Shown piece after piece: positions 1 through 42,365 of a DNA stretch of 64,000 nt. This DNA comes from an uncultured Gemmatimonadaceae bacterium (GTDB taxonomy: Bacteria; Gemmatimonadota; Gemmatimonadetes; Gemmatimonadales; GWC2-71-9). The position numbers and the translations under genes are program-made. Location: assembly GCA_964571795.1 (NCBI GenBank), contig CAZNDK010000003.1, positions 74,644 to 138,643 on the forward strand, in the 5' to 3' direction. Every line of letters starts with the position of its first letter. Position 1 is the stretch's first letter. The notes under the pieces are model-generated. The model was not told the DNA's origin, searched no databases, and worked only from the letters and a program-made list of their open reading frames with translations.

Positions 1-1
1 C

Positions 2-391
2 CTGGTGTCGGCCTCCGAGGAGGGACTGCTGCTGGGCGAGGTGGCGCGGGCCCGCTTCACGGCCGAAGAGGCGGTGCTCGCCTTTCCGGACGAGGCGGCG
101 GCCCATCTCGTGCTCGGGCGGGTGCTGATCGCGGAAGCGCGCTATGACGAGGCCGTCCTGCGGTTCACCCAGACGCTGCGCTGCGATCCAGCGTGTGCGC
201 CCGCACTACGGCTGCTTGGGCTGGCGGAGGTGGGGCGGGGACGCTTCGGCTCGGCGCTCGAGGCCTGGGCCCGCTGGGAGTCGCTCGACCCGCTGCCCGA
301 CAGCGAGCGCGGGCGCGACGACGTGGTGCGCCGCTGGCGCGCCGCCGTGGACACCCTGAAGGACGCACTCGGAGGACGCCGTGAGCAATGA
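2..391 (+). CDS. TPR-repeat protein, C-terminal part (5' end outside window)
   Basis: The frame is open from the window edge to TGA 389-391. It contains helical TPR-type repeats (AHLVLGRVLIAEARYDEAVLRFTQTLRCDP; APALRLLGLAEVGRGRFGSALEAWARWESLDP). Its stop overlaps the next start by 11 nt. Confidence 0.55.
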   Translation: MVSASEEGLLLGEVARARFTAEEAVLAFPDEAAAHLVLGRVLIAEARYDEAVLRFTQTLRCDPACAPALRLLGLAEVGRGRFGSALEAWARWESLDPLPDSERGRDDVVRRWRAAVDTLKDALGGRREQ

Positions 392-1241
392 AGACATCCG
401 CGTCCTGACCGCGCAACTGGCCGCCGACCCCTCGAGCCTGGTGTTCCTCCCGCTCGGCGAGGCGCTCCGGCGTCGCGGCCAGCTCGACGCCGCCGAGAAG
501 ATCGCCATCGCGGGCCTCACGCGGTACCCGGACCTGGCCGACGCCCACGACCTGCTGGCGCGCGTCCTCGGCGACCGGGGTGACCTCGAGCGCGCCTTCG
601 ACGAGTGGGATATCGCGCTTCGCCTCGACGAGCGCCATGCCGGCGCGCACAAGGGCATCGGGTTCCTCTACTACGTGGCGGGCGACCTCCCGCAGGCGCT
701 CGAGCACCTCGAGGCGGCCCTGGCCATGGATCCGGAGGCGGAAGGGGTCGCCGCCGCGGTGGCGCGGGTGCGCGAAGCGCTTGCCACGCCGGAGACGGCG
801 CGGGCGCGGCCCGACGCCCCCGCGGCGGTCCGGCCGGAGGAGCGGCATAAGGCGCCGCAGCCACGCGGCCCGGCCGATGACGCGCCCGCCGTCTTCGAGG
901 GCCTCGAAGGCGCCATGGACGGGCTCCTCCTGCTGGACGGCAACGGGTTGCGGCTGGGCGGCGGCCTGACCTCGCCCTCGGGGGAGGCGGTGGGCGACGC
1001 TGTCGCGGCGCATCTCGCCGGTGTCTTCCGCGACGCCTCCCGCGCCACGCGGCTCCTCTCGCTCGGGGCGTGGACCAGCGTGGCCGCCGAGACTGGCGAC
1101 GCGAACCTCTTCCTCTGCGCCCCGACGCCGGACTCGTTGCTCCTCCTGGTGCGCGACAACAGCGTGCCGATCGGCCGGCTGGCGCACCAGGCGGAACGCG
1201 CCGCGGAATCCGCCCGCCGCTGGCTGGAGCGGCCGGCATGA
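381..1241 (+). CDS. TPR + Roadblock/LC7 fusion protein
   Basis: The N-terminus has TPR-type repeats (GQLDAAEKIAIAGLTRYPDLADAHDLLARVLGDRGDLERAFDEWDIALRLDERHAGAHKGIGFLYYVAGDLPQALEHLEAALAMDP). An Ala/Pro/Arg-rich linker follows. The C-terminal ~110 aa show a Roadblock/LC7 pattern (MDGLLLLDGNGLRLGG..DAVAAHLAGVFRDASRATRLL..NLFLCAPTPDSLLLLV). GTG start; the stop shares ATGA with the next gene. Confidence 0.7.
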   Translation: MSNEDIRVLTAQLAADPSSLVFLPLGEALRRRGQLDAAEKIAIAGLTRYPDLADAHDLLARVLGDRGDLERAFDEWDIALRLDERHAGAHKGIGFLYYVAGDLPQALEHLEAALAMDPEAEGVAAAVARVREALATPETARARPDAPAAVRPEERHKAPQPRGPADDAPAVFEGLEGAMDGLLLLDGNGLRLGGGLTSPSGEAVGDAVAAHLAGVFRDASRATRLLSLGAWTSVAAETGDANLFLCAPTPDSLLLLVRDNSVPIGRLAHQAERAAESARRWLERPA

Positions 1242-1588
1242 GCACGAAGCTGCTCGACTCCCTCGAGACCGTCACCCGCGTGCGGGGCGTGCGCGGCGCC
1301 ATGGTGGTCTCGGCCGAGGAGGGGCTCGTCGTCGCGGAAACGTCGATGGAGGGCATCGACGGGTCGGCGGTGGCGGCGCTGACCGCCGGCGTCGTCGCGC
1401 GGCTCACCCGTGCCACGGAGGCCGCCGGCCGCGCGGCGCCCGCCTTCGTGCACCTGCAGGCCGAAGGCGGCGCGCTCCTGGCCGTTCCCGCGGGAGTCGA
1501 CCTGCTGGTCGTGGCGGTGACGGACGCCGAGGTGAACGTCGGGCTGGCCCGGCTGGAGCTCCGCCGCGCCGCGGAGCAACTGGCCTGA
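1238..1588 (+). CDS. Roadblock/LC7 domain protein (MglB/MglC-like paralog)
   Basis: 116 aa with the typical Roadblock pattern (VRGVRGAMVVSAEEGLVVAETSMEGIDGSAVAALTAGVVARLTRATEAAG..ALLAVPAGVDLLVVAVTD). The ATG at 1238 overlaps the upstream stop (ATGA), and its own stop overlaps the next ATG (TGATG). Confidence 0.75.
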   Translation: MSTKLLDSLETVTRVRGVRGAMVVSAEEGLVVAETSMEGIDGSAVAALTAGVVARLTRATEAAGRAAPAFVHLQAEGGALLAVPAGVDLLVVAVTDAEVNVGLARLELRRAAEQLA

Positions 1589-2049
1589 TGCGTGTCATCG
1601 AGCCCTGGGTCGCGGACCCGCTGCAGCGCTTCCTGGCGGAGTCGTCGGCCAGGCTGGTGCTCCTCACCACGTCATCGGGTCAGGTGGTGGCGCAGCATGG
1701 GTTCACGCGCGCGCTCGATGTGATGTCGGCCTCCGCGCTCGGGGCCGCCATCATGGCGAGCACGGAGGAGCTGGGACGGCTCACCGCGTCGGGGGCCTCG
1801 CGGGCGCTGTCGCACCAGGGTCCGTCGCGGGGGCTCTTCCTCTCGGCGTTCGACCTGCCGCAGGGCCGCTGGATCGGGCTGGTCGTGTATGACCGCGACA
1901 GCTCCCTCGGCCTGGTCCGGCTCTTCTTCGACCAAATGGTGCAGGAACTCCAGGCGCTCGCGCCGAAGGAAACGCCGGCCCGCGAGGTGCTGGCCGCCGA
2001 CTTCGAAAACGAACTCAACGCGAGCCTCCGCTCGCTCTTCGGACGGTAG
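1588..2049 (+). CDS. mglB: MglB-like Roadblock/LC7 GTPase-activating protein
   Basis: It lies directly upstream of mglA, the order seen in Myxococcus. It has a Roadblock core (LVLLTTSSGQVVAQHGFTRALDVMSASALGAAIMASTEELGRL). The block IGLVVYDRDSSLGLVRL resembles the VVLVVIFDNRTSLGLVRL block of M. xanthus MglB, as I recall that sequence from memory. It also carries a C-terminal extension. Confidence 0.75.
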   Translation: MRVIEPWVADPLQRFLAESSARLVLLTTSSGQVVAQHGFTRALDVMSASALGAAIMASTEELGRLTASGASRALSHQGPSRGLFLSAFDLPQGRWIGLVVYDRDSSLGLVRLFFDQMVQELQALAPKETPAREVLAADFENELNASLRSLFGR

Positions 2050-2052
2050 CAG

Positions 2053-2655
2053 ATGTCGCTCGTCAACTTCACGACCCGGGAAATCACCTGCAAGATCGTC
2101 TATTACGGACCGGGCCGGTCCGGCAAGACGACCAACCTGCAGTACATCTACGGGCGCGTGCCGGAGAGCCGCCGCGGACGGATGGTGTCGCTCGCCACCC
2201 AGTCGGACCGCACCCTCTTCTTCGACTTCCTGCCGATCGACCTCGGGAGCATCAGCGGCTTCACCACCCGGTTCCAGCTCTACACAGTGCCCGGCCAGGT
2301 GTACTACAACGCCACCCGCAAGCTGGTCCTCCAGGGCGCGGACGGGGTGGTGTTCGTGGGCGACAGCCAGGCCCGGCGGTACGACGACAACGTCGAGAGC
2401 CTGCAAAACCTCCAGGAAAACCTGCTGGCGCAGGGCGTGGACATCCGCCAGCTGCCGGTGGTGTTCCAGTACAACAAGCAGGACCTGCCGCGCGACCTCA
2501 TCCTGAACCCGGCCGAGCTCGACGACGCGCTCAATTTCCGCGGGGTCAAGAGCTTCGGCGCCGATTGCCTGCACGGGCACGGGGTGTTCGAGACCCTGAA
2601 GGGCATCTCGGAGCTCGTGCTCCAGCGGCTGGCGGCGGGGAGTCCGGCGGCGTGA
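2053..2655 (+). CDS. mglA: MglA, Ras-like small GTPase (polarity/gliding regulator family)
   Basis: Near-colinear similarity to my recollection of M. xanthus MglA: REITCKIVYYGPGRSGKTTNLQYIY (P-loop), SDRTLFFDFLP (intrinsic Arg region), FQLYTVPGQVYY (switch II Gln), QYNKQDL (G4). Confidence 0.92.
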   Translation: MSLVNFTTREITCKIVYYGPGRSGKTTNLQYIYGRVPESRRGRMVSLATQSDRTLFFDFLPIDLGSISGFTTRFQLYTVPGQVYYNATRKLVLQGADGVVFVGDSQARRYDDNVESLQNLQENLLAQGVDIRQLPVVFQYNKQDLPRDLILNPAELDDALNFRGVKSFGADCLHGHGVFETLKGISELVLQRLAAGSPAA

Positions 2656-4652
2656 CCACGCAGCTGAGCCCGCAATTCCGCTTCGACGGGTTCATCGTCG
2701 GCGCGGCCAACCGCCTGGCCGCCACGGCGGCGCGTGCGGTGGCCGAGTCGCCCGGCACCGCGTACAACCCACTCTTCATCTACGCCCGGCCCGGGCTGGG
2801 CAAGACCCACCTCCTGATGGCGATCGGGCACGCCGCGCAGGCCATCAATCCGGCGCTGACCGTCGAGTACGTGACCCTCGACGACTTCGTGGAGGCCTTC
2901 CACACGGCGGTCGGGGCGGGGCAGGGCGAGGTGTACCGGCGGCGGTTCGCGGAGTCCGACCTGCTGTTGCTGGACGACGTGCAGTTCGTCACCCACCGCC
3001 GCGAAACCCAGGCCGAGCTGCTGCGGCTGGTCGACCAGATGCAGACGGCCGGGCGCCAGATCGTGCTGACCAGCGACCGCCCCCCCGCCGAGATCGAGGC
3101 GCTCGACGAGCGGCTCCTCCGGCGGGTCGCAGGCGGCCTGGTCATCGACATCGCGGCCCCGGACTACGAGACGCGGGTCGCCATCCTGCGCCGGAAGGCG
3201 GAGGAGCGGCAGGCGAAGTTCCTGCCGGGGGTCCTCGAGGCGGTCGCGACGCTGGCGCTCGACAGCGTGCGTGAACTGGTGGGTGCGCTGAACCGGCTGG
3301 TGGCCTTCCAGTCGGTGGGCGAGGCGCCGCTGGACGCCGCGCAGGCCCGACTCGTCCTCGGCGTCCGCGCCATCGCGGCCGATGTCCCCGCAGTAGGGCA
3401 GGCGGACGGCGATCCGGAAGAGCCAGTGCGCGCCCTCGGTCCGACGCATCCTGCCGGCGCGGCTCCCGCGGAGGCGCCCGATGAGTTCGGCGCGTTCCTG
3501 AGCGAAGTGGCCGATACGCTCACCCGGCAGGTGGAGGGGTGGCGTCGGCGGGTCGAGGAGGCCATCGCGCGCTGGGAGGACCAGGGCTACCGGACGGCTC
3601 GGCTCGCCGGGTTGCTCGATCGCGGCCTCGACGGCGACCCCGCGGAGGCGCTCTCGGGCTTCGTGGCCGACGTCGAGCGGCTGCAGGCGCTGCAGGCCGA
3701 GGCGGCGGCGCTCGCGGCCGACCTCGCCGCCGACCCGGTGTTTCGCGACCCCGACGCCATTCCGGTCGCCGAGGCGTTCCTGGCCCGCGGCCGCGAAGGT
3801 GCGTCGCCCCCGCCGCCGCCCGAGCCGATCTGGGTGTTCGACGACCTGGTCGAGTCGGCCGGCAACCGGATGGCGCTGCGCTCGACCCGCGAGGTGGCCG
3901 AGCGCCCCGGCGTCGCGTACAACCCGCTGGTCATCCTTGGCGGCGCCGGCGTCGGCAAGACCCACCTGCTTCACGCGCTCGGCAATCTCCTGCAGGCCGC
4001 GCCGGGCGCGGTCGTCGCCTGCCTCAACACCCAGGATTTCACCGACGAGCTCATCGAGGCGATCGAGCGCGATCGCGTGGGGCAGTGGCGGTCGCGTTAC
4101 CGGCGCGTGACCGCCTTCCTGCTCGATGACGTTCAGCTCGCCGCCGGCAGGGAGAGGACCCAGGAGGAGCTCTTCCTCCTCTTCAATCATCTCCTGGAGC
4201 AGGGCTCGCAACTGGCCTTCACTTCGTCGGTGGCCCCCGGCACCATCGAGCATTTCGAGGAGCGACTCGCCAGCCGGCTCGCGGGCGGGCTCGAGGTGGA
4301 GCTGCCCCCGCCGGAGCGCGAAGTGCGCCAGGCCGTGATCGAGCGGCTGCTCGGCGCCCGGTACGACCGGGTGGACGCCGAGCTGGCCAGCTTCCTGGCC
4401 GGCCGCCCGGCCGAGTCGGTGCGCGCGGTGCAGGCCCTCGTGCAGCGCATCGAGGCGGCGGCCGACGCGCGGCATGCGGAGCCGGATGTGGCGCTGGCGC
4501 GCGAGGTCCTCGAGGGCGCCGCCCCGAAGCCACCGCGGCCCGCGCCCGGCGTGCGCACCAGCGGCGTCGGGGCCGGCGGCATCCGGAGCCCGGAAAAGGC
4601 GGTCTGGGAATGGCCCGATCTCGGTGAGCGGCTCATCGAGGAGTGGCGCTGA
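2652..4652 (+). CDS. Tandem DnaA/Hda-like AAA+ ATPase (two AAA+ modules, no DnaA domain I or IV)
   Basis: GTG 2652 overlaps the mglA stop (GTGA). Module 1: PGLGKTHLL, LLLLDDVQF, IVLTSDRPPAEI, LDERLLRRVAGGL, SVRELVGALNRL. Module 2: GAGVGKTHLL, AFLLDDVQL, LAFTSSVAPGTI, FEERLASRLAGGL, SVRAVQALVQRI. No HTH/DnaA-signature C-terminus is visible. Confidence 0.8.
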   Translation: MTTQLSPQFRFDGFIVGAANRLAATAARAVAESPGTAYNPLFIYARPGLGKTHLLMAIGHAAQAINPALTVEYVTLDDFVEAFHTAVGAGQGEVYRRRFAESDLLLLDDVQFVTHRRETQAELLRLVDQMQTAGRQIVLTSDRPPAEIEALDERLLRRVAGGLVIDIAAPDYETRVAILRRKAEERQAKFLPGVLEAVATLALDSVRELVGALNRLVAFQSVGEAPLDAAQARLVLGVRAIAADVPAVGQADGDPEEPVRALGPTHPAGAAPAEAPDEFGAFLSEVADTLTRQVEGWRRRVEEAIARWEDQGYRTARLAGLLDRGLDGDPAEALSGFVADVERLQALQAEAAALAADLAADPVFRDPDAIPVAEAFLARGREGASPPPPPEPIWVFDDLVESAGNRMALRSTREVAERPGVAYNPLVILGGAGVGKTHLLHALGNLLQAAPGAVVACLNTQDFTDELIEAIERDRVGQWRSRYRRVTAFLLDDVQLAAGRERTQEELFLLFNHLLEQGSQLAFTSSVAPGTIEHFEERLASRLAGGLEVELPPPEREVRQAVIERLLGARYDRVDAELASFLAGRPAESVRAVQALVQRIEAAADARHAEPDVALAREVLEGAAPKPPRPAPGVRTSGVGAGGIRSPEKAVWEWPDLGERLIEEWR

Positions 4653-6271
4653 TGGCCATCAAGGGCAGCCTCAAGGAAGCCAGCCTTCCCGACGTGATCC
4701 AACTGCTCGCGCTGGGCCGGAAGACCGGCTGCCTGGCAGTCGCCGACCGGCAGAACTTCGGCTACACCTATTTCGACGACGGACGGATCGTCTACGCCTC
4801 CATCGTGAACCGGCGGGACCGGCTGGGCGATCTGCTGGTGCGGAACGGGCGGATCACCGATGAACAACTGCGCGCCGCGGTGGACCGGCAGGCAGGCGAC
4901 CGCGACCGGAAGCTGGGCGAGATCCTGGTGGAGCTGGGGCACATCACGCGCGCGGAGCTCGAGGAGCACATCAGGGTGCAGGTCGAGGAAGCCGTGTACT
5001 ACCTGTTCACCTGGAGCAGCGGCACCTTCAACTTCGAGGCCGGGGTGCGGCCGGAGCGGGAGGACTTCCTGGTGTCCATCAACCCGGAGTCGCTGCTGCT
5101 CGAGGGCGCGCGGCGGGTGGACGAATGGAGCCTCATCGCCAAGAAGATCCCGACGCTCGACATCGTCTTCGAGGCCGACCAGCCCCGGCTGCAGGCCGCC
5201 GGCGTCCGGCTGAGCGACGAGCAGGAGATCATCCTGCCGCTCCTGAACGGCCGCAACGACGTCCAGGACGTCGTGGACGCGTCGGGGCTCGTCGAGTTCG
5301 AGGTGGGCAAGGCCATCTACGGCCTGCTCGCCGCCGGGTTCGCCCGGCGGGTGGGAACCTCGGCCACCCAGCAGTCGGAAAAGGTGAACGACGCCCGCGT
5401 GGAGGAGCATCGCAACCTCGGGGTCGCCTTCTACAAGACCGGCATGTTCGACGAGGCGGAGCGGGAGTTCCGGCGGGTCGCGGAGTTGCGCGCCACCGAG
5501 GGCAACGCGCCGTTCTACCTGGGGCTGATCGCGCTCCGGCAGGCGCGCTGGGCCGACGCGGCGGAGTCGTTCAAGAGCGCGGTGGACCTCGGCGGCCCGC
5601 GGCCGGCGGCGCTGCACAACCTGGCGCTGTCGCTCGAGCGGCTCGGCAAGCTGGCCGAGGCAGAGGCGGCCTGCTCCGAGGCGGTGAGCCGCGCGCGCGA
5701 GGACGCCCGCCCCATGCTGCTCTGGGGTGTCATCGCGCTGAAGCGGGAGGACGCCGAGGTGGCCGAGGGCCGGCTCGCGCGGGCGCGCGAGCTGCTGGGA
5801 ACCAAGCCGGTGCCGCCGCTCTGGTTCTGGGCGGCGGAGCTGGCAGCGGCCTCCTCGGGCGACCTGCCGAGGGCGGTCTCGGTGGCCCGCGAGGGCGTCC
5901 GTGCCTGGCCCGTGCATCCCGTGCTCCGGAACAACCTGGCGGTGCTGCTGGAGCTGACGGGGGAGCTCGCCGAAGCCGAGAGCGTCCTGCGGGCCACGCT
6001 CGCCGAGGAGCCAAGCCTGCCCCAGCTGTCGAAGAATCTCGGCGACCTCCTCTATCGCGGCGGTCGGTACGACGAGGCGCAGGAGGCCTTCGACCGCGCC
6101 GCCAAGCTGGCCCCGGACCTTGGCGACGACCTCTACTTCAAGCTCGGCAATCTGGCATTCCGCCGGCGCGACCGGGAGCGGGCGCGTGACTGCTGGCGCC
6201 GGGCCGCGGAGCTGAATCCGGGCCATCAACTGGCCCGGTCGAACCTCGAGATCCTGGATGTTCCCGCGTGA
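4652..6271 (+). CDS. PATAN (DUF4388) domain + TPR-repeat protein
   Basis: The N-terminus MAIKGSLKEASLPDVIQLLALGRKTGCLAVADRQNFGYTYFDDGRIVYA matches the DUF4388/PATAN pattern. A GSPII_E_N-like segment follows (RLGDLLVRNGRITDEQLRAAV..KLGEILVELGHITRAELEEHI). The C-terminal half has TPR repeats (HRNLGVAFYKTGMFDEAEREFRRVAEL etc.). ATG 4652 shares TGATG with the upstream stop; an in-frame GTG at 4643 is the alternative start. Confidence 0.7.
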   Translation: MAIKGSLKEASLPDVIQLLALGRKTGCLAVADRQNFGYTYFDDGRIVYASIVNRRDRLGDLLVRNGRITDEQLRAAVDRQAGDRDRKLGEILVELGHITRAELEEHIRVQVEEAVYYLFTWSSGTFNFEAGVRPEREDFLVSINPESLLLEGARRVDEWSLIAKKIPTLDIVFEADQPRLQAAGVRLSDEQEIILPLLNGRNDVQDVVDASGLVEFEVGKAIYGLLAAGFARRVGTSATQQSEKVNDARVEEHRNLGVAFYKTGMFDEAEREFRRVAELRATEGNAPFYLGLIALRQARWADAAESFKSAVDLGGPRPAALHNLALSLERLGKLAEAEAACSEAVSRAREDARPMLLWGVIALKREDAEVAEGRLARARELLGTKPVPPLWFWAAELAAASSGDLPRAVSVAREGVRAWPVHPVLRNNLAVLLELTGELAEAESVLRATLAEEPSLPQLSKNLGDLLYRGGRYDEAQEAFDRAAKLAPDLGDDLYFKLGNLAFRRRDRERARDCWRRAAELNPGHQLARSNLEILDVPA

Positions 6272-7089
6272 TCGTGGACGACGAAGAGGGCTTCAAGGCG
6301 CTGACGCGCCGGGTGTCCCGCGACGCGGGCCTCTCGCTGGACGCCTACAAGGACAAGTGCCTCCGACGGCGGCTGCTCGTCCGGATGCGCGCCTGCAGCG
6401 TGCACACCTATGCCGAGTACATGTCGGTCCTCGACCGGCGGCCCGAGGAGTGGGACAAGCTGAAGGACGCGCTCACGATCAACGTGACGCGCTTCTACCG
6501 GAATCCCGAGACCTGGGACCGCCTCCGCCAGGACTTCCTGCCGGAGCTCCTGCGTGCGCGCCAGGGGCGCGTGCAGGCGTGGAGCGCAGGGTGCTCCTCC
6601 GGCGAGGAGCCCTACACGCTCGCCATGCTCTGCGCCGAGGTGGCCGAGTCACTGGGCTACGCGTCCTGGGCCGAACGGGTACGGATCGATGCCACCGACA
6701 TCGATCGCGAGAGCCTCGAGCGCTCGACCGCCGGACGCTACCCGCATTCCGCATTCCTTGAGGCGCCAGGGTGGATGACGGCCCGGTATTGCGAGCCCAC
6801 GGAGGACGGCTGGCAGGTGCGCGACGCCGTCCGGCGCATGGTGACGGTGCGTCGCCTCGACCTCACCCGGGAGGCGCGTCCCCCGGCCAGCGCGGACCTG
6901 ATCCTGTGCCGCAACGTCGTCATCTACTTCGACCGGCCGATGCAGGAACGGCTCTTCGGCCAGTTCGCAGAGGCGCTGACCCCGGGAGGCATACTCGTGC
7001 TGGGCAAGGTCGAAACGCTCCTCGGCGTCGCGCGGGAGCGGCTCACCCTGGTCGACGCCCGCGAGCGCATCTTCCGGCGGCCCGCATGA
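6268..7089 (+). CDS. cheR: Chemotaxis protein methyltransferase CheR
   Basis: CheR N-terminal helical domain (LDAYKDKCLRRRLLVRM) and SAM-binding motif (VQAWSAGCSSGEEPYTLAM; LILCRNVVIYFD). The GTG start overlaps the upstream stop (GTGA). Confidence 0.9.
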   Translation: MIVDDEEGFKALTRRVSRDAGLSLDAYKDKCLRRRLLVRMRACSVHTYAEYMSVLDRRPEEWDKLKDALTINVTRFYRNPETWDRLRQDFLPELLRARQGRVQAWSAGCSSGEEPYTLAMLCAEVAESLGYASWAERVRIDATDIDRESLERSTAGRYPHSAFLEAPGWMTARYCEPTEDGWQVRDAVRRMVTVRRLDLTREARPPASADLILCRNVVIYFDRPMQERLFGQFAEALTPGGILVLGKVETLLGVARERLTLVDARERIFRRPA

Positions 7090-7574
7090 AGGCCGGCGAG
7101 ATCATGGTCCACGTGGCTGAATACAAGGTGGGCGGGGCGGGGGACACGCTGATCACGGTGGGGCTGGGCAGCTGCGTGGCGGTGGCGCTGCACGATGCCG
7201 ACGCCAAGGTCGGCGGGCTGGCCCACATCCTGTTGCCGTCGCCGGCGCTGAGCCGCCGCGACCCGAACCCCGGCAAGTTTCCGCAGACGGCCATCCCCCT
7301 CCTCCTCCAGGACATGGTCGGCCGAGGTGCCCGCGCGTCGCGCATCACCGCGCGCCTGGCGGGGGGCGCCTCCATGTTCATGAACCTGCAGCCGGCCGGG
7401 ACGATCCAGATGGGGGAGCGCAACCTCGTGGCGGTGCGCGCTGCGCTCACCCACCACGGCATTCCCCTCGTGGGGAGCGCCGTCGGGGGCGACTTCGGGC
7501 GGACCATCCGCTTCTTCGTGGACGACGGGCGCATCGAGGTCTCGACGGTTCGCCGGGGAGTGACGCATCTCTAG
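7086..7574 (+). CDS. cheD: Chemoreceptor glutamine deamidase CheD
   Basis: 162 aa with CheD motifs ([34 protein letters not shown]). ATG 7086 overlaps the cheR stop (ATGA). Confidence 0.85.
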
Positions 7575-8631
7575 CCTGCCGACGGTCCTGGTTGCCGACG
7601 ACAGCGCGCTGATCCGGCGCCTCCTGACGGAGATCATCGACGGCTCGGGCGAGTTCCGCGTGGTGGCCACGGCACGGCACGGGCTCGACGCGCTCCGCAA
7701 GGTGCACGAATACCAGCCCGACCTGGTCACGATGGACCTCGAGATGCCGGAGCTCGACGGCCTCGGCGCCATCGGGTACCTGATGTCCGAGGCCCCGCGC
7801 CCGGTCGTGGTCATCAGTTCGTACGCGGGGCCCGGCACCGCCGGGGCCATCCGCGCGCTGGAGCTCGGCGCGGTGGAGCTGGTGGCCAAGGAGGCGGGCC
7901 GGGACGACGAGTCGCGGGGCCGCTTCTCCGCGCGGGTGCTCGAGGCGCTCCGGGCTGCGCGCGCCGCCGATATCCATCGGATGCCGATGCTGGCCCGGCC
8001 GCACCGGCCCGACCTGCCGGCCGATTCGTTCGCGCTGCCGGGGCGCGCCCGCTTCTGCGTGGCGATCGCCGCCTCGACCGGCGGCCCGCGGGCGCTCGCG
8101 GAGGTCATTCCGCACATCGCGCGCGGGCACCAGGCGGCGGTGGTGGTCGTGCAGCACATGCCGCCCCGCTTCACGCGCAGCCTGGCCGAGCGTCTCGCGG
8201 TGCAGAGCGACCTGGCGGTGGTCGAGGGCGAGCACGGCGCCCCGCTCGTGTCGGACACCGCGTACATAGCGCCGGGGGATTATCATATGCGAGTGACGGA
8301 CGGACCCGACGGCATCGCGCTCGCGCTCGACCAGGGACCGCCGCTCTGGGGCGTGCGGCCTGCCGCCGATCCGCTGTTTCGGTCCGTGGCCCAGCTGTTC
8401 GGGCGGCGCGCCGTGGGCGTGGTCCTCACCGGGCTCGGGCGCGATGGCGCGGAAGGGCTCCGGCAAATTCACGACGCCGGCGGCAAGGGCATCGCGCAGG
8501 ACCGCGGGAGCTCCACCATCTTCGGTATGCCCAACGCGGCGCAGCTCGCCGGCGGGGCCGACCTGGTGCTCCCGGTCGGCGAGGTCGGCGCCCGCGTCAC
8601 GGCGCTGCTGGCCCGGATGAACCTCGCGTGA
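7567..8631 (+). CDS. cheB: Chemotaxis response regulator protein-glutamate methylesterase CheB (start codon unresolved)
   Basis: Receiver domain ([34 protein letters not shown]) plus esterase triad contexts ([33 protein letters not shown]). The first canonical start, GTG 7660, would delete receiver strand 1 and the DD pair. The frame is open from 7564 with only ATC 7567 (6 nt after GGAG) or CTG 7576/7588 as possible starts. Confidence 0.8.
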
Positions 8632-9065
8632 CCGCCGTCGGCACGTGCCAGTACCTGCTGGTCCACGCCGGCGGACGCCCGATCGGGCTCGAGGTGGCCG
8701 AGGTGCTGGAGGTCGTCGACCTCTCGGCCACGTTCGCCGTGCCCACCCACGAGCCGGCGCTCCGCGGCGTGGTGGCCGTGCGCGAACGCCTCGTGCCGGT
8801 GGTGAACCTGTCGGCCGTGCTCTGGGGCGACTCCGCGCCGGCCGTCCGTGGCGAGGTGGGCGTGCTCGCGCGGGCGGGCCGCCAGCGCATCTGCCTCGAG
8901 GTGGACAGTGCGGAGGCGGTGCTCGCCGAAGACGTGGTGCCGGTGCCCGCCGGCGAGTCGCTCCCGTGGGCCATGGGAGTCGCCCGCCGCGACGGGGCGC
9001 TGGTCCCGATCCTTGACCTCAAAGCCCTGGGAGCCCGGCTCCTGGGAGGGAAGAGCGGTGCATGA
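8628..9065 (+). CDS. cheW: CheW-like coupling protein
   Basis: 145 aa with a CheW-like pattern ([57 protein letters not shown]). GTGA overlap with the cheB stop. Confidence 0.7.
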
Positions 9066-9523
9066 CGACCGGCGATGACATCCAGGTGGTGATCTTCCAG
9101 GGCGGCACGCAGGAGTTCGCCCTCGAGATTTCCCAGGTGGACCGAATCCTCCGCTACCAGCAGCCGTCGGCGGTGCCGAGCGCGCCCGACTTCCTCGAGG
9201 GCGTCCTGCCGTACGGCGGCGGTGTCGTGCCGGTGGTGGACCTTCGGAAACGCCTCGGGGTCGAGGCCCGCCAGCAGGACGAGACCCGGGTCATGATCGT
9301 CACCATGGACGGGCAGCGGGTCGGGATGATCGTGGACGGCGTCCGCGAGGTGCTGCGCATCGACAGTCGCCGGATCGCCGCCCCGCCGGCCATGGTGCGG
9401 GGCCTGGCGGCCAAGTACATCGCCGGCGTCCTCACCCTCGAGGGCCGCACCGTAATCCTGTTGCAGGCGGGTCGGTTGTTCAGCGGCGAGGAGCGCCTGC
9501 AACTCGAGGCCGCCGCCACGTGA
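9062..9523 (+). CDS. cheW: CheW coupling protein
   Basis: 153 aa with the classical CheW pattern (VVIFQGGTQEFALEISQVDRILRY..PDFLEGVLPYGGGVVPVVDLRKRLG..VGMIVDGVREVLRI). ATGA overlap. Confidence 0.85.
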   Translation: MTTGDDIQVVIFQGGTQEFALEISQVDRILRYQQPSAVPSAPDFLEGVLPYGGGVVPVVDLRKRLGVEARQQDETRVMIVTMDGQRVGMIVDGVREVLRIDSRRIAAPPAMVRGLAAKYIAGVLTLEGRTVILLQAGRLFSGEERLQLEAAAT

Positions 9524-10392
9524 CGGAGGGCTGGCTCACGGCCCTGCGCGACGAATACGCCGCCCTTGCCGCGCGACTGGGCAAGGCGCCGGCCGGGGCG
9601 GAGCGCCAGGCCATCAAGCGGGACATCATCGCCTACTTCAAGAGGGTGGACGGCACGCTCGGGGAGCTTGCGGCGCTCAAGGAGCAGATCCGCGCCCTCG
9701 TCGAGCAGTACAAGCAGCTGGCGGCCGACGCCGAGGACACCGAGGCGCCGCAATTCACCGGCGCCCGGCCGGTGGTGCACGCCGATCACCTCGGCGCATC
9801 GACCTACATCGAGAAGGGCTGGAGCCTGATATCGCTCGGCGACTTTCCCGGCGCCATCCAGGCCCTGGGCAAGGCGCTCGCCCTCTCCCCCGACGACACG
9901 CAGGCGCTCTCCCTGCTCGGCTGGGCTCAGATGCTCGCCGAAGAGTACGACGAGGCGCTCGGCACCTTCTCGAAGGTCCTCATGCGGGAGCCGGCGAATG
10001 CGCTGGCCCGAATCAACGTCGGCTACATCTGCCTCAAGAAGCGCATCTTCGGCGAGGCGATTGAGCATCTCTCCCGCGCCATCCGCCTCGACAACGACCG
10101 GAAGGCCACCCTCTACGCGCACTTCTACCTGGGGCTCGTCTACCAGGAACGCGAGATGTACGAGGACGCGGACGCCTTCTTCCGCAAGGCGCTGGCCCTG
10201 GGCCCCAACCTGATCGAGGCCTACTACGAACTGGGCCGGTCGCTCTGGTTCATGGGACGGAAGGACGACGCGAAGCAGGCCTGGACCGACGGACACAAGG
10301 CCAACAAGTTCAACCCGTGGGGCAAGCGTTGCCGCGAACTGCTCGACCTCGCGGCCGCCGGAGGGGACATCCCTCGACGTTCTCCAGCCTGA
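9520..10392 (+). CDS. Coiled-coil + TPR-repeat protein
   Basis: N-terminal heptad-like segment (GELAALKEQIRALVEQYKQLAAD), then TPR repeats (YIEKGWSLISLGDFPGAIQALGKALALSPDD; ALSLLGWAQMLAEEYDEALGTFSKVLMREP; HFYLGLVYQEREMYEDADAFFRKALALGPN). GTGA overlap with cheW. Confidence 0.7.
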   Translation: MTEGWLTALRDEYAALAARLGKAPAGAERQAIKRDIIAYFKRVDGTLGELAALKEQIRALVEQYKQLAADAEDTEAPQFTGARPVVHADHLGASTYIEKGWSLISLGDFPGAIQALGKALALSPDDTQALSLLGWAQMLAEEYDEALGTFSKVLMREPANALARINVGYICLKKRIFGEAIEHLSRAIRLDNDRKATLYAHFYLGLVYQEREMYEDADAFFRKALALGPNLIEAYYELGRSLWFMGRKDDAKQAWTDGHKANKFNPWGKRCRELLDLAAAGGDIPRRSPA

Positions 10393-11321
10393 TACTCGCT
10401 GTCGCGCTCCTGCAGGGACAACCGACCGCCACGACGGTGGGGCGCGTCACGGCGGTCGCCTGGCCCGCCGACGCGGCGATGGCCGCCGGGCTGGCGGAAC
10501 TCGCGGACCAACCGGCCACGTGGCCCGGACTCGGGCAGCGAGACCTCGGTGAACTCCGGCTGGTCGTCACCTCCGATTCCCAAAGCTTCCGCGAGTTCAC
10601 GCGGGGCCGGCTCCCCGGCTGGGGCGCCGGTGCGGCCTTCCCCGGCGGGCGCACCATCGTGCTCCGCGCCGACGCGGGCGACGTGGTGGGGACCCTGCGC
10701 CACGAGCTCGCGCACCTGGCGCTTCATCAGGCGGTCCGGGGGCGCGTGCCGCTCTGGTTCGACGAGGGCTACGCAACCGTGGCGAGCGGCCAGTGGGACA
10801 TCTTCGACCGGCTCGGCGTGAACCTGGCCGTGGCGAGGGGCGCCACACCAGGGTTGCGGGAGCTCGACGGGGCGCTCCGCGCGTCCCAGATGTCGGCCGA
10901 TGCCGCCTACGCGCTGGCGGCCACGGCGGTCCTCGAATTGGCCCGGCGGAACCCGACCGGCACGCTCGATCCGCTCTTTGAGCGGCTCGAGGCCGGCACC
11001 GGATTCGACGAGGCGGTGCTCGCGACCACCGGCTTGAGCCTGGATCGGTTCGACGAACTGTGGCGCCGCAGCGTCCGGTTGCGGTTCGGGTTGGTCACGT
11101 GGATGCTCGGCACGGGGCTCTGGATCGTCATGGCGGCCCTGCTTGCCATCGGGTACGAGGCTCGACGCCGCCGGGACCTGCCGAGGAGGGCGGCACTGGA
11201 CGTCGGGTGGGTGGTCGAGCCGGAGGAGCCCCCGGCCGACCTTCCAGGTCAGGACACCGGCGGCCCGGAAGTGCCCCCAAATGAGGCCGGCCCGCTTGAC
11301 CATGGGCGCACTCCCGGCTAG
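10317..11321 (+). CDS. Putative MA-clan (HExxH) metallopeptidase-like membrane-anchored protein
   Basis: HELAH motif followed by WFDEGYA (a possible third zinc ligand Glu). The N-terminus is signal-like (RRRGHPSTFSSLILAVALLQG) and there is a C-terminal TM segment (LVTWMLGTGLWIVMAALLAIGY). The start is uncertain: GTG 10317 overlaps the upstream gene by 76 nt, and GTG 10437 is the alternative. Confidence 0.55.
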   Translation: MGQALPRTARPRGRRRGHPSTFSSLILAVALLQGQPTATTVGRVTAVAWPADAAMAAGLAELADQPATWPGLGQRDLGELRLVVTSDSQSFREFTRGRLPGWGAGAAFPGGRTIVLRADAGDVVGTLRHELAHLALHQAVRGRVPLWFDEGYATVASGQWDIFDRLGVNLAVARGATPGLRELDGALRASQMSADAAYALAATAVLELARRNPTGTLDPLFERLEAGTGFDEAVLATTGLSLDRFDELWRRSVRLRFGLVTWMLGTGLWIVMAALLAIGYEARRRRDLPRRAALDVGWVVEPEEPPADLPGQDTGGPEVPPNEAGPLDHGRTPG

Positions 11322-11333
11322 CGTTCTCCGCTT

Positions 11334-11525
11334 ATGCCCGAACCATCAAAGGTCACGAAGGCGCGTGCTATCCCGCTGGGGCCTCGCAACTTGGCCCTCC
11401 TCGCGGCCGGAGTCGTCTCGCTCGTGGCGGGATACTTGCTCCTCGCTTCCGGAAGCACCAGCCTTGCTGCGGTGTTGCTGGTCCTCGGCTACTGCGTCCT
11501 TCTCCCATTGGGAATCGCGCTCTAG
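11334..11525 (+). CDS. Small two-TM membrane protein (DUF3098-like pattern)
   Basis: 63 aa with two hydrophobic spans (NLALLAAGVVSLVAGYLLLA; LAAVLLVLGYCVLLPLGIAL). GC3-rich codon usage is consistent with real coding. Confidence 0.45.
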   Translation: MPEPSKVTKARAIPLGPRNLALLAAGVVSLVAGYLLLASGSTSLAAVLLVLGYCVLLPLGIAL

Positions 11526-30094: not shown

Positions 30095-31885
30095 ATGCTC
30101 AACCTTCTCCTGATTCCACTCGGCGCCTCCCTGGCGCTCCTGACCTATCTCCGCCTCGAGCCCCGGGGGCGGCGGACCTGGATTCCCATGGCCGCGCGCG
30201 CCGTGGCCTGGGGAGGGCTCGGGGCGCTGCTCGCCAATCCCGGCTGTCCAGGCTCGGTGGACACCCGGCCGCCGGTAGTGCTTCTCGACGCGTCGCTCAG
30301 CATGACGGCGGCGCCCGAGCAGTGGCGCATCGCGTCGGATTCCGCGCACCGGCTGGGGCGGGTGCGGTGGTTCGGCGATGCGCGGCCCTGGACCGACTCG
30401 ATTCCGGACAGGGGTCGCAGCGATCTCGGCACGGCGCTCCAGACGGCCGTGTCAACCGGCCGGCGCGTCGTCGTGGTCACCGACGGCGAGCTCGACGGCG
30501 CGGGCGACATCCCCGCGGACCTGCTCGCGTCCACTGGCGTGGTGGTCCTGCCGCGGAAGGTCGCGCGCGACCTGGCGCTGGTTGAGGTGAGCGCGCCCGC
30601 CCGTGCCACCGTCGGCGACAGCCTCGAGGTGTCCGCCGAGGTGCGGCTCAATGGCGCCGATTCGGCGGACTCCGCGGCCGTGACAGTGATGCTGGGTGCC
30701 CGGGTGCTGGGGCGCGCCCGAGTCCGGGTGGAGCCCGGCGCCACGGTACCGGTGCGGCTCGTTGCGGCGACGCGCGGCATCCCGGCCGGATTCCACCTGC
30801 TCCGCGTGGAGCTCACCGGCGCGGCCGATGCCGAGCCGAGGGACAATGCCCGGCTGGTGGCGGTCCACCTCGCGGCCACCCCCGGGATCGTGGTGCTCGC
30901 GGCCCCCGGAGACTGGGACGCGCGGTTCCTCTATCGGACGCTCCGGGAAGTGGCGGACCTGCCGGTGAAGGGGTACGTGCAGCTCGAGGCGGACCGGTGG
31001 CGCGACATGGATGGCCTCGCGGAGGTCGGCGCGGCCACGGTCCAGCGCGCCGCGAAGGGAGCCGACCTCCTGGTGGTTCGAGGATCGGCGGACGGGATGG
31101 ACGCCACGACGGGCGCGCGCGGCCTGCTTCGCTGGCCCGATGCCGTCGCCGGAGCCGGCGAGTGGTACGTGTCGGGGGCGCCGGTGTCGCCGGTGGCCAT
31201 GGCCTTCCTGGGCGCCCCAGTCGAATCATTGCCGCCGGTGACCGGCGGGCTAGCGCTGGTGGCGGGGGCCGGCGACTGGGTGGGGCTCACCGCGCAGCAG
31301 GGCCGCCGCGGCGCCGCCCGCCCGGTCCTCCTCGGTCGGCAGGCGGGGAAGCGGCGAGAAATCCTGGTGGGCGCCGAGGGTTTCTGGCGGTGGGCCTTCC
31401 GCGGGGGGCCCAGCGCCGACGTGTATCGCACGATGGTCGCGTCGAGCGTTGCCTGGTTGCTCGCCGCCCCGGAGGAGGGCGCGGCGGAAGCCCGCGCCGT
31501 ACGCACCGTGGTGGAGCAGGGGCAGCCGCTCGTCTTCGAGCGGTCGCGCGACTCGACCACCGCGCTGGCCGTCTCCTTCGACGGGCCGAACGGCGTGCGG
31601 CAGGATACCCTCCGTTTCGGCGGCGACGGACGCGCCATGCTGTGGATGCCGCCGGGCACCTACCGCTACCGGATGGCGGGCCCGCGCGGTGGCGTGGGCA
31701 CCGTGGCGGTGGACACCTGGTCGCGCGAGTGGCTCGCCCGGCCCGTGGTGGCCCGGGCGCAGCCGATGCCCTCGGGTGCGGCGGGCGCGCGCAGGACGGC
31801 GCGTGATTGGCCCTGGCTCTATGCGCTCGTCCTCCTGGCCCTCGCGGCCGAATGGCTGGCGCGCCGCCGGCTCGGGCTGCGCTGA
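30095..31885 (+). CDS. Membrane protein of unknown function (N-terminal double-TM, C-terminal TM anchor; BatA/aerotolerance-like ends)
   Basis: N-terminal hydrophobic spans (LNLLLIPLGASLALLTYL; AVAWGGLGALLA). The ~500-aa middle is predicted to be soluble. The C-terminus WPWLYALVLLALAAEWLARRRLGLR resembles the EW..RRR end of BatA-type proteins, as I recall that family from memory. Confidence 0.55.
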   Translation: MLNLLLIPLGASLALLTYLRLEPRGRRTWIPMAARAVAWGGLGALLANPGCPGSVDTRPPVVLLDASLSMTAAPEQWRIASDSAHRLGRVRWFGDARPWTDSIPDRGRSDLGTALQTAVSTGRRVVVVTDGELDGAGDIPADLLASTGVVVLPRKVARDLALVEVSAPARATVGDSLEVSAEVRLNGADSADSAAVTVMLGARVLGRARVRVEPGATVPVRLVAATRGIPAGFHLLRVELTGAADAEPRDNARLVAVHLAATPGIVVLAAPGDWDARFLYRTLREVADLPVKGYVQLEADRWRDMDGLAEVGAATVQRAAKGADLLVVRGSADGMDATTGARGLLRWPDAVAGAGEWYVSGAPVSPVAMAFLGAPVESLPPVTGGLALVAGAGDWVGLTAQQGRRGAARPVLLGRQAGKRREILVGAEGFWRWAFRGGPSADVYRTMVASSVAWLLAAPEEGAAEARAVRTVVEQGQPLVFERSRDSTTALAVSFDGPNGVRQDTLRFGGDGRAMLWMPPGTYRYRMAGPRGGVGTVAVDTWSREWLARPVVARAQPMPSGAAGARRTARDWPWLYALVLLALAAEWLARRRLGLR

Positions 31886-41222: not shown

Positions 41223-42365
41223 GTGCGACGCCTCATCCTCGTTCCGTTTCTCCTGTGCGCCGTCCCGACCGGCGCGGTGGCGCAGTCGTCGATCTTCGGC
41301 GTGCGCGGGCTCGGCATTCCGCAGGCGCCGATCTCCGTTCGGGCCACGGGCATGGGCGGCAGCGTGTCCCTGGTGGACGGGCTGTCGAGCACCAACCCCG
41401 CGGCCATCACGTCCGTCGTTGGGCTCACCGCCGGGTTCAATTTCTTCCAGGACTGGCGGTCGAGCACCACCCCCGCCGGCGAGGGTTCGGCCTCGGACGA
41501 CGGCTTCCCGCTGGTCACCGTGGTCAACCGGTACAAGGATTCGCCGGTCTACTTTTCGGGCAGCTTCGGCACCTACACGGACCGGGACTTCGGCATCGTC
41601 ACGATCGACACGACCAACGTCAACGGCTTCCCGGTCGGGTACCGCGACTCGCTGGAGTCGAAGGGCGGCACCTCGGATTTCCGGCTGGCCATTGGCTACC
41701 GGAGAGGGCGCACGCTGTCGCTCGGGTTCGGCTTTCACTTCATCACCGGCTCCAACCGGATCACACTGCACCGGACCTTCAGCGACACCGTGCTCGCCAA
41801 CGTCAACCAGCGCGCGGAACTCGCCTACAACGCCATCGGCCTGAGCCTGGGCGGGGTGTACCACCCCACCGAAAAGCTGCTGATCGCCGCCGTCATCCGG
41901 CACGACGGCGAAATGAACGTGGACCTGGACTCCACCCAGGCGTACACCTTCGAACTCCCGTGGTCGTTCGCCGGCAGCGCGCAATACCGGGTCGGGCAGA
42001 AGGCGATCGTGAACGCCGAGGTCGAGTATTCCACCTGGTCGGACGCCAGCACGGAGATCCAGGAGGTCGGCGGCGTGGGGGCGGATAACGCGCTGCGCGC
42101 CGCGATCGGCGCCGAGATCACGACCAACGTCGCCTCGCCGGGGAAGTTTCCGGTCCGGGTCGGGGTGCGGACCGCCCAGCTGCCCTTTCCGCTCGCCCCG
42201 GGCCAGCAGCCATCGGAGTTCGGCGTGTCGGGCGGCACCGGCATACGGTTCGCCAAGGGCCACGCCGCGCTCGACCTGGCGCTCGAGCGCGTCTGGCGGA
42301 AGGCCGACGGCGGGTATTCCGAGGATGCCTGGATCTTCTCCTTCGGCCTCGTCCTGAAGCCCTGA
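41223..42365 (+). CDS. Outer-membrane beta-barrel protein of unknown function
   Basis: Signal peptide (LILVPFLLCAVPTGAVAQS), a VRATGMGGS motif near the N-terminus, and alternating amphipathic beta-strand patterns throughout (DFRLAIGYRRG, LSLGFGFHFITG, AWIFSFGLVL). The GTG immediately follows the lipoprotein stop. Confidence 0.6.
   Translation: MRRLILVPFLLCAVPTGAVAQSSIFGVRGLGIPQAPISVRATGMGGSVSLVDGLSSTNPAAITSVVGLTAGFNFFQDWRSSTTPAGEGSASDDGFPLVTVVNRYKDSPVYFSGSFGTYTDRDFGIVTIDTTNVNGFPVGYRDSLESKGGTSDFRLAIGYRRGRTLSLGFGFHFITGSNRITLHRTFSDTVLANVNQRAELAYNAIGLSLGGVYHPTEKLLIAAVIRHDGEMNVDLDSTQAYTFELPWSFAGSAQYRVGQKAIVNAEVEYSTWSDASTEIQEVGGVGADNALRAAIGAEITTNVASPGKFPVRVGVRTAQLPFPLAPGQQPSEFGVSGGTGIRFAKGHAALDLALERVWRKADGGYSEDAWIFSFGLVLKP

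Follow-up and report, generated by a model that had tools for sequence, protein, structure and literature searches.

What connects a chemosensory pathway to a Ras-like polarity GTPase when the genes for both lie in one string, and does that string encode the whole pathway? The question is raised by a stretch of 64,000 nucleotides from an uncultured Gemmatimonadaceae bacterium (positions 74,644 to 138,643 of contig CAZNDK010000003.1, assembly GCA_964571795.1; 71% G+C), referred to here as the window, which opens with 13 genes (2-10392, all on the + strand) for tetratricopeptide repeat (TPR), Roadblock and PATAN-domain proteins, MglB-like and MglA proteins, a tandem DnaA-like ATPase which we refer to as DnaA2, and CheR, CheD, CheB and two CheW proteins. 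Comparison with about 100 related loci identifies these genes as the last 13 of an 18-gene unit which is probably co-transcribed. We give slightly better than even odds (a probability of about 0.55) to the proposal that an F1-like Che pathway feeds its CheY output into a scaffold of TPR, PATAN and AAA+ proteins which would set MglA/MglB polarity.

Extent of the gene string

A first-pass annotation had described the 13 genes as a kinase-less Che adaptation module fused to mglBA. The kinase-less part of this description fell in comparison with relatives, as cheA is found directly upstream of the Mgl block in every relative reaching that far. Short contigs identical to the window reach 1.1 kb beyond its upstream edge and match the 384-aa PATAN-TPR gene of one relative (L007) at 85-90%, and the first window open reading frame (ORF) is the C-terminal third of such a ~384-aa protein, with the full-length relative carrying both DUF4388 (the PATAN domain) and TPRs. 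In relatives with 83-88% DnaA2 identity, the upstream gene order is rluD, cheW, cheY (120 aa), cheA, cheC, a gene for an 897-aa TPR protein, and PATAN-TPR, with a CheA of Hpt, P2, dimerisation, HATPase and CheW domains; in all relatives cheA, cheY, the third cheW and cheC are placed 3.5-7 kb ahead of the point where the window begins. Looking upstream for cheA, cheY and a gene for a methyl-accepting chemotaxis protein (MCP), as the annotation had proposed and as could be done in these relatives, turned up the first two; no mcp was found. Judging from these loci, the kinase-less appearance is an artefact of the window edge.

Downstream of the string, tblastn found no homologues of CheA, CheY, CheW or MCP in the window from 10.4 to 64 kb, in agreement with the earlier observation that CheA, MCP and CheY are absent from the downstream 54 kb. 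Receptors were sought with the signalling domain of Tsr (tblastn at E<=10), and this probe detected no MCP in the window or in 88 loci, nor in the six loci which reach 7.5-10 kb upstream of cheA. The probe can be taken to work because it did detect the MCP of an unrelated che cluster (L120). The genes further upstream are yggS-like, ileS, dksA-like, lspA and rluD, with no mcp among them. By its gene content, the Che pathway appears to be complete apart from receptors, and these must be encoded elsewhere, since there is no receptor gene in the string or less than 10 kb away from it. The receptors of the Bacillus subtilis fla/che operon are likewise encoded elsewhere. Gemmatimonas phototrophica is reported to have a single polar flagellum and an MCP gene at a distant locus (PMC9862903).

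Conservation across the Gemmatimonadales

When a DnaA2 alignment was run against genomes sampled at one per species, at least 420 of them proved to carry a full-length DnaA2 relative. The approximately 100 loci compared here are the best 80 of these at least 420 genome loci and about 20 metagenome loci, and gene order was followed by tblastn with all 23 proteins. Wherever the contig reaches, the order is identical in all of these loci, down to 52% DnaA2 identity, and the full unit consists of 18 genes: cheW-cheY-cheA-cheC-TPR-PATAN/TPR-TPR/Robl-Robl-mglB-mglA-DnaA2-PATAN/TPR-cheR-cheD-cheB-cheW-cheW-TPR. The first TPR protein of the unit, encoded after cheC, is ~890 aa long. The unit is preceded by rluD and followed by Peptidase_MA_2, a 63-aa protein, TPR570 and rsmH. 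The comparison of mglA neighbourhoods which had been suggested returned the same 18-gene order in every sufficiently long locus, and the view that the Che genes are physically welded to mglBA is upheld by the recurrence of both order and overlapping junctions in about 100 loci. As to the fusion of two modules, their physical joining holds and the end-to-end layout does not, with the Che genes flanking the Mgl block on both sides.

Median gaps at the 17 internal junctions run from -17 to +18 nt, most junctions being overlaps, and the overlaps are kept at 52% protein identity. At the boundaries between Che and other genes, the distances are +3 nt (cheC to TPR) and -4 nt (PATAN-TPR to cheR) in 94-99% of loci, and the first real gaps come past the last TPR gene (medians of 59, then 212 and 218 nt). 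At the other end, 93% of loci show an 8-nt overlap of the first cheW with the stop codon of the rluD-like pseudouridine synthase gene, and because of this the transcript may begin further upstream, in housekeeping genes. In relatives L007 and L008, positions 1-916 are this rluD-like gene, and the string sits between ileS-lspA-rluD and a division and cell-wall (dcw) cluster led by rsmH.

Individual proteins differ in how well they are conserved, with median identities to the reference of 93% for CheY, 86% for MglA, 77% for CheC, 72% for the last TPR protein, 59% for DnaA2, 56% for CheA and 48-58% for the CheW proteins. CheY (L007:935-1297 and orthologs) shares 89-100% identity across the order and 67-72% with the proteins of two more distant lineages (B and C, see below), while CheA from the same loci is at ~55%. 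Such extreme conservation would imply that CheY has several simultaneous binding partners.

The best 80 genome loci are all named Gemmatimonadales, Gemmatimonadota or Gemmatimonadaceae with one exception, a 4070-bp contig (L029) binned as Solirubrobacterales (Actinomycetota). In length, coordinates and identity scores it agrees exactly with a contig (L032) from a Gemmatimonadales metagenome-assembled genome (MAG), and it is probably mis-binned rather than the product of a transfer. A protein search seeded from a 65%-GC subclade, which includes a Gemmatimonadaceae-labelled contig, matched only MAG and metagenome proteins and no cultured strain. The sole pointer to a cultured strain is G. aurantiaca GAU_1115, given simply as 'MglB>MglA>' in the table of Wuichet and Sogaard-Andersen 2014 (PMC4316618).

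Variants in distant lineages

HMMER, run exhaustively over 1.84 billion representative proteins, recovered full-length DnaA2 relatives down to ~33% identity, and among these are three further architectures. Lineage B (L134 and L135, 3024-14497; 57% G+C) has the same ileS-lspA-rluD...rsmH context and the order cheY-cheC-TPR886-PATAN/TPR-TPR-Robl-mglB-mglA-DnaA2-PATAN/TPR-TPR, in which seven Che genes are missing (cheA, all cheW, cheR, cheD and cheB) and the last TPR gene adjoins the PATAN-TPR gene where cheR/D/B/W/W would otherwise stand. Lineage C (L131, 1136-12067, and L140, 521-12064, the latter labelled Candidatus Cloacimonetes bacterium 4572_55; 49% G+C) is found in a different context with the order cheW-cheY-cheA-AAA_22 ATPase-CheW-domain protein (long)-cheC-TPR826-PATAN-DnaA2, and is without MglA, MglB, Roadblock and cheR/D/B genes. 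In lineage D (L137, 7373-12701, from a Gemmatimonadota MAG), only a large TPR protein is encoded beside DnaA2.

A large TPR protein is always encoded next to DnaA2, and the association which remains constant in the Che-containing architectures is that of CheY, CheC, the large TPR protein, PATAN and DnaA2, with MglAB/Roadblock found in two of the three and the kinase likewise in two of the three. As lineages B and C keep CheY and CheC with the TPR/PATAN/DnaA2 set in two chromosomal contexts, these proteins appear to travel together, and their association is unlikely to be mere inertia because it recurs in a different chromosomal context. MglAB would then be an addition to a core of CheY/CheC, TPR, PATAN and DnaA2.

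Gene content of the window and translational coupling

The 13 window genes and their downstream neighbours are as follows, with all coordinates on the + strand.

2-391, +: C-terminal TPR part of a PATAN(DUF4388)-TPR protein (TPR families); gene cut by the window edge
381-1241, +: TPR-Roadblock protein, 286 aa (TPR_2 and others; Roadblock/MglB-like C-terminus)
1238-1588, +: stand-alone Roadblock/LC7 protein, 116 aa, MglC-like in size (Robl_LC7, 38.5 bits)
1588-2049, +: MglB-like protein, 153 aa, presumed MglA GTPase-activating protein (GAP) (PDB match to Myxococcus xanthus MglB)
2053-2655, +: MglA, predicted group-1 Ras-like polarity GTPase, 200 aa (241 bits to M. xanthus MglA)
2652-4652, +: DnaA2, tandem DnaA-domain-III AAA+ ATPase, 666 aa (two Bac_DnaA stretches, no Bac_DnaA_C)
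4652-6271, +: PATAN(DUF4388)-TPR protein, 539 aa (DUF4388, 133 bits, and TPRs)
6268-7089, +: CheR methyltransferase, 273 aa (CheR and CheR_N; GTGA overlap)
7086-7574, +: CheD deamidase, 162 aa (CheD, 96 bits; ATGA overlap)
~7567-8631, +: CheB methylesterase (Response_reg residues 7-113 and CheB_methylest when read from 7567)
8628-9065, +: CheW, 145 aa, the most divergent of the three CheW proteins (CheW, 63.8 bits; median 48% identity across the order)
9062-9523, +: CheW, 153 aa (CheW, 111 bits)
9520-10392, +: TPR protein, 290 aa, closing the coupled string (first ~80 residues, labelled coiled-coil in the first-pass annotation, match no TPR family; TPR families begin at residue ~93)
10437-11525, +: Peptidase_MA_2 protein and a 63-aa protein, downstream neighbours (syntenic in all loci; membership in the unit uncertain)

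The count, strand and domain labels given in the first-pass annotation were sustained by our profile searches, with Pfam, PDB and NCBIfam matches between them backing the labels. The window junctions are, in order, -11, -4, -1, +3, -4, -1, -4, -4, (cheD/cheB), -4, -4 and -4 nt, so that the near-universal overlap of starts and stops also stands; the first of these is a GTG start (381-1241) overlapping the upstream stop by 11 nt, and the second is an ATGA overlap (1238-1588). The 3-nt maximum gap which had been claimed is correct at all other junctions, and for cheD-cheB only with a non-canonical cheB start. A terminator within the string would have split it, and no + strand terminator-like site was found in 1-10392, with the first at 13550. 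A sigma-70 promoter scan found no sites where 0.4 were expected, and is uninformative at 71% GC. The 18-gene unit is, by the arrangement of its genes, probably co-transcribed.

It should be noted that the cheB frame contains no ATG, GTG or TTG between the upstream stop at 7561-7563 and GTG 7660, which is the first canonical start, and that the conserved receiver N-terminus TVLVADDS, including the acidic pair, is encoded upstream of that GTG. An ATG or GTG cheB start overlapping cheD is present in most Gemmatimonadales and is gone from the subclade of the window, where a canonical start upstream of the conserved TVLV strand is missing from the window and from three of its nine closest relatives, and in the remaining six relatives canonical starts occur only among the Val codons of this strand. 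The region upstream of 7660 appears to be translated, because the peptide ISSLPTVLV is conserved while its codons vary in their third positions. The candidate non-canonical starts are ATC 7567, CTG 7576 and CTG 7588, with the ATC and CTGs conserved, and presumably translation begins at one of these through coupled re-initiation. Read from 7567, CheB has a complete receiver domain, in keeping with the earlier view that it retains a phospho-accepting receiver.

The Che proteins

The Che proteins of the unit are best read as an F1-like (Thermotoga/Bacillus-like) pathway. CheY shares ~68% identity with T. maritima (Thermotoga maritima) CheY (173 bits over 117 residues) and has its phospho-acceptor residues intact, the nearest match of CheC is the CheC of T. 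maritima, with both phosphatase motifs (D/SxxxExxNx22P) preserved, and the best NCBIfam model for CheA is that of haloarchaeal CheA (441 bits vs 327 for the E. coli type). CheY and CheC catalytic motifs are kept in lineages A, B and C. The CheC, CheD and five-domain CheA expected of an F1-class system are all present, and features of the Frz type were not found, there being no receiver on CheA, no FrzCD (a cytoplasmic receptor) and no FrzZ (a dual-receiver protein), with CheY and CheB as the sole receivers. An apparent tandem cheY in one locus (L013) is a single gene split by an assembly frameshift.

MglA, MglB and the Roadblock proteins

The window MglA matches M. xanthus MglA (5YMX) with 241 bits over residues 1-197 and is ~65% identical to it by eye. 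Its motifs are intact (P-loop GPGRSGKT at 19, NKQD at 141), switch II reads T78-V-P-G-Q82 with Thr replacing Asp, and D52-R53-T54 includes the intrinsic arginine finger R53. MglA proteins are 81-100% identical across the order, and the mglB-like gene ends 3 nt before mglA in a tandem kept in all loci. By its similarity, motifs and tandem mglB, the protein is predicted to be a group-1 MglA.

The MglB-like protein has no Pfam hit, including Robl_LC7, and scores 26.9 bits with the NCBIfam MglB model, far under the cutoff of 200; among PDB structures it matches M. xanthus MglB best (E 2e-7), followed by Thermus MglB (E 2.5e-3), and it is presumed to be the GTPase-activating partner of MglA. The best PDB match to the stand-alone Roadblock protein (1238-1588) is 7f8m, a Roadblock protein, followed by M. 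xanthus MglB. In the TPR-Roadblock protein (381-1241), Robl_LC7 scores 19.1 bits, below the Pfam threshold, and a profile of 14 orthologous C-termini matches Thermus MglB 1J3W at E 9.5e-5. The N-terminus of this protein (window 381-440 and orthologs) has a conserved [ST]x[DE]DIRxL[TS]xxLAxxPxSLxFLxLGEALRRRGQL motif. We considered this as a FliM-like CheY-binding peptide and do not claim it as such, the likeness being faint, the key Asp being Arg, and the motif perhaps being just the first TPR helix.

DnaA2, a tandem DnaA-like ATPase

DnaA2 consists of two AAA+ modules, of which the N-module is 41% identical to B. subtilis DnaA domain III (217 bits) and the C-module is more diverged and only Hda-like, and the top Foldseek matches are to DnaA domain III. 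Walker A/B, R154/R158, R538/R542 and both sensor-II Arg residues are invariant, and we take the two Arg pairs to be equivalent to the arginine fingers R281/R285 of E. coli DnaA. The structure model (pLDDT 80, the predicted local distance difference test score) has a pair of AAA+ modules with helices in the middle region (278-383), two disordered stretches and no helix-turn-helix domain, and a Pfam search found neither domain I (DnaA_N) nor domain IV (Bac_DnaA_C), both of which a DnaA would have. It passes the TIGR00362 DnaA equivalog cutoff (453 bits vs 344) only because two module copies add up. Many of the best database matches, among thousands of relatives including metagenome records, are named 'chromosomal replication initiator protein DnaA'. 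For proteins with this domain content the name is very probably wrong, and likely to be a systematic misannotation.

The C-terminal tail VWEWPD...IEEWR (nt 4602-4649) is invariant, follows a disordered stretch and forms a short final helix in the model. TPR clamps bind C-terminal peptides such as EEVD. It is pure speculation that the tail recalls such peptides, in a cluster with five TPR proteins. A 'QLSPQF' at the DnaA2 N-terminus was considered as a beta-clamp motif and rejected, as its counterpart in the alignment is the LNPKYTF with which DnaA domain III ordinarily begins. We also considered whether TPR proteins and NTPases might form a defence system, and rejected this because PADLOC gave only trivial P-loop and TPR fragments.

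PATAN proteins and c-di-GMP

The PATAN domain (PF14332/DUF4388) scores 133 bits in the 539-aa protein and 115 bits in its upstream paralogue, against a cutoff of 25. Within the PATAN domain of the former, a helical insert (nt 4820-4981) reads RLGDLLVRNGRITDEQLRAAVDRQ-AGDRDR-KLGEILVELGHITRAELEEHIRVQ, which is two copies of an MshEN-type motif. The 24-residue MshEN motif, which binds cyclic di-GMP (c-di-GMP), was defined by Wang et al. (PMC5013675). The NCBIfam model NF053729 ('c-di-GMP_motif, MshE-related'; cutoff 38) scores the 539-aa protein at 50.2 bits and its 384-aa paralogue (L007:6598-7752) at 37.7 bits, and in the latter the first Arg is lost and only motif II is intact. Both motifs are recognisable and are kept throughout the order, with a spacer of 6 residues rather than 5 and motif II beginning with K/R. 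It is probable from these motifs that the PATAN domains bring c-di-GMP input to the system.

A proposed route from CheY to cell polarity

In the route we propose, receptors encoded elsewhere would form arrays with the CheW proteins and control CheA, which would phosphorylate CheY and CheB; CheR, CheB and CheD would adapt the receptors, and CheC would limit the lifetime of phosphorylated CheY (CheY-P). CheY-P would not act solely, and perhaps not at all, on a flagellar switch, and would dock on a cytoplasmic scaffold of TPR, PATAN and DnaA2 proteins. In the Gemmatimonadales this scaffold would include three Roadblock-domain proteins and MglA, and CheY-P would shift the MglA-GTP/MglB balance to select or switch the pole of the active motility organelle, which might be type IV pili (through contacts of PATAN with a PilB-type motor) or a polar flagellum. 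Through the MshEN-type motif, c-di-GMP would modulate the action of PATAN proteins, and DnaA2, by binding and hydrolysing ATP, would probably drive the assembly and disassembly of the scaffold. The logic would be like that of Frz to MglAB in Myxococcus, built as one unit from an F1-like Che pathway and other adaptors. Frz controls MglAB there (PMC4546325), and MglA-GTP binds the 14-TPR protein SgmX, recruiting PilB (PMC11580455). Further precedents are the Bdellovibrio hub in which MglA binds a TPR protein (PMC3983030) and the PATAN-receiver regulators that bind PilB1 (PMC9090330). The encoding of all of this in one string suggests a hard-wired link between sensing and cell-pole choice.

Several points weigh against this proposal. 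The proteins are known here from their genes and sequences alone, and the upstream part of the unit has been filled in from relatives with 83-88% DnaA2 identity. The flanking rluD and rsmH are equally syntenic within the order, so that synteny alone is weak evidence. By their CheY, CheC and CheA matches, the Che proteins resemble an F1-type set of the usual flagellar kind and cultured Gemmatimonas has a polar flagellum (PMC9862903), and for these two reasons CheY-P may simply bind FliM. No pilus or flagellar gene was found in the window or in any fetched locus, which makes the motility target a guess.

A more far-reaching version, which we hold tentatively and as less probable than the route above, is that the TPR-PATAN-DnaA2 trio is an unrecognised chemosensory output device, a cytoplasmic scaffold driven by ATP and sensitive to c-di-GMP, which would read CheY-P with CheC as its timer and be unrelated to the flagellar switch or to known pilus regulators, and into which the Gemmatimonadales would have plugged MglA, MglB and Roadblock proteins.

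If this more far-reaching version is correct, it would be a second and independent invention of chemotaxis control over a Ras-like polarity GTPase, outside the Myxococcota and in a single unit which names all of its adaptors. The link from Che to MglA/MglB has so far been pieced together in Myxococcus alone, from parts scattered over the genome. In the present phylum, which is abundant in soil, one string brings together the pathway, the GTPase and its presumed GAP, two more Roadblock proteins, TPR scaffolds, PATAN adaptors with a probable c-di-GMP site and a DnaA-derived ATPase. The sister lineages serve as natural 'deletion mutants' which show which parts travel together, and the result is a testable parts list from signal to polarity. 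It also suggests a new role outside replication for a DnaA-type AAA+ module, and flags the widespread error by which DnaA2 is named DnaA in databases.

Alternative explanations

It is conceivable, though in our view unlikely, that the unit encodes ordinary F1-type flagellar chemotaxis in which CheY-P binds FliM, and that the Mgl block receives no signal and places the receptor array and/or the flagellum at the pole (compare ParC/ParP and FlhF/FlhG). The likeness of CheY to its Thermotoga counterpart extends to the same alpha4-beta5-alpha5 face, CheC and CheD are present and the best-scoring CheA model, the haloarchaeal one, is of the F1 class, the Gemmatimonas with one polar flagellum also has its MCP genes elsewhere (PMC9862903), and three CheW proteins with many TPR scaffolds would suit the building of arrays. 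However, lineage B keeps cheY and cheC with the Mgl block without cheA, cheW or the adaptation genes, whereas a device for positioning arrays would be expected to stay with array parts and not with a diffusible regulator and its phosphatase, and there is no flagellar gene near any version of the cluster.

We consider it improbable that the Che and Mgl/TPR operons are functionally independent, having been compacted in the ancestor of the order and kept together by inertia. Local gene order does seem to be frozen, as the cluster is no more syntenic than its ileS-lspA-rluD and rsmH-dcw flanks and even rluD overlaps cheW by 8 nt in 93% of loci. Inertia fits poorly with Che genes on both sides of the block, with junction overlaps kept at 52% protein identity, with the shedding of seven Che genes in lineage B while cheY and cheC stayed with the block, and with lineage C, in which Che is again joined to TPR-PATAN-DnaA2 in another chromosomal context.

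An output to the cell cycle seems more improbable still. DnaA2 would co-oligomerise with DnaA or act in an Hda-like manner, so that Che/Mgl signals gate the initiation of replication or division, and this would draw on the N-module with its 217 bits (41% identity) to B. subtilis DnaA domain III, on both arginine fingers being kept, on the TIGR00362 score, and on the rsmH-ftsI-...-ftsZ dcw division cluster 3 kb downstream. DnaA2 nonetheless has neither the DNA-binding domain IV nor domain I, lies far from the dcw cluster in lineages C and D, and has as constant partners TPR and PATAN proteins, which are typical of motility and polarity hubs.

We regard as very improbable indeed a CheR/D/B/W/W adaptation module fused to mglBA with no dedicated CheA or CheY, since the lack of cheA, cheY and mcp in the 64-kb window is set against cheW-cheY-cheA-cheC directly upstream in every relative reaching that far and a first window ORF that is a truncated gene of the same string.

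Comparison with known systems

The closest parallel to the proposed route is the Frz-MglA/MglB/RomR system of M. xanthus, which also couples a Che-type phosphorelay with a group-1 MglA and an MglB-type Roadblock GAP; the extra Roadblock (MglC-like) and TPR (SgmX-like) partners here and the presumed logic, in which CheY-type regulators reset a polarity GTPase, are further similarities. The two differ in that Frz and mgl are at separate loci in Myxococcus, as the first-pass annotation had noted and as Wuichet and Sogaard-Andersen 2014 (PMC4316618) bear out, whereas here they form one string. Frz also has FrzE (a CheA-receiver fusion), FrzCD, FrzZ and FrzX where we find a single Thermotoga-like CheY and no clustered receptor, it has no counterpart of CheC, CheD, DnaA2 or the PATAN proteins, and RomR, RomX and RomY were not seen in the Gemmatimonadales cluster. 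In both M. xanthus and Bdellovibrio bacteriovorus, mglA is not near the genes of its signalling partners, and group-1 mglA neighbourhoods vary, with PATAN genes only occasionally nearby (PMC4316618).

The F1 class of T. maritima and B. subtilis has the same CheA, CheW, CheY, CheC, CheD, CheR and CheB set, but here there are three CheW proteins and the Che genes are interleaved with an eight-gene TPR/PATAN/Roadblock/MglAB/DnaA-like block instead of flagellar genes. Cyanobacterial Tax/Pix systems similarly link Che-like genes to PATAN-domain proteins, and cyanobacterial PATAN-receiver proteins bind the PilB1 pilus motor and set the direction of movement (PMC9090330; bioRxiv 10.1101/2021.06.11.447907). 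PATAN is fused to a receiver there and to TPR here, with an MshEN-type motif, MglAB and DnaA2. The hub of B. bacteriovorus (MglA-TPR protein Bd2492-RomR-CdgA) joins MglA at one pole to a TPR scaffold and to a protein that binds c-di-GMP (PMC3983030), but has no MglB and no Che/Frz input, with dispersed genes and a degenerate GGDEF protein as the c-di-GMP receptor. In actinobacterial conservons (CvnA-D), a histidine kinase shares its operon with a Roadblock protein and a GTPase of the MglA family (PMC4316618); the kinase is a membrane sensor kinase rather than CheA, the GTPase belongs to MglA group 2, and there are no Che, TPR, PATAN or DnaA-like genes. Within the DnaA/Hda family, both halves of DnaA2 are recognisable as domain-III AAA+ modules with Walker A/B, arginine fingers and sensor II, and it is set apart by its tandem domain III, helical insert, ...EEWR tail and absence of domains I/IV.

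Full-text literature searches brought up no account of Che and MglAB genes in one cluster, of chemosensory systems in the Gemmatimonadota, or of a tandem DnaA-like protein with links to Che or Mgl genes. What is new is the combination of genes, the DnaA-derived ATPase as a constant Che partner, and the encoding in a single string; the families of the parts are all known.

Remainder of the window

Three sizeable + strand ORFs with high G+C at third codon positions (30095-31882, 40017-41219 and 41223-42362) match no Pfam family at E<=1e-5. The downstream ORFs that were sampled are housekeeping genes, and include the dcw cluster from rsmH to ftsZ, recG, tRNA synthetases, comEC, riboflavin genes, ptsI and metK.

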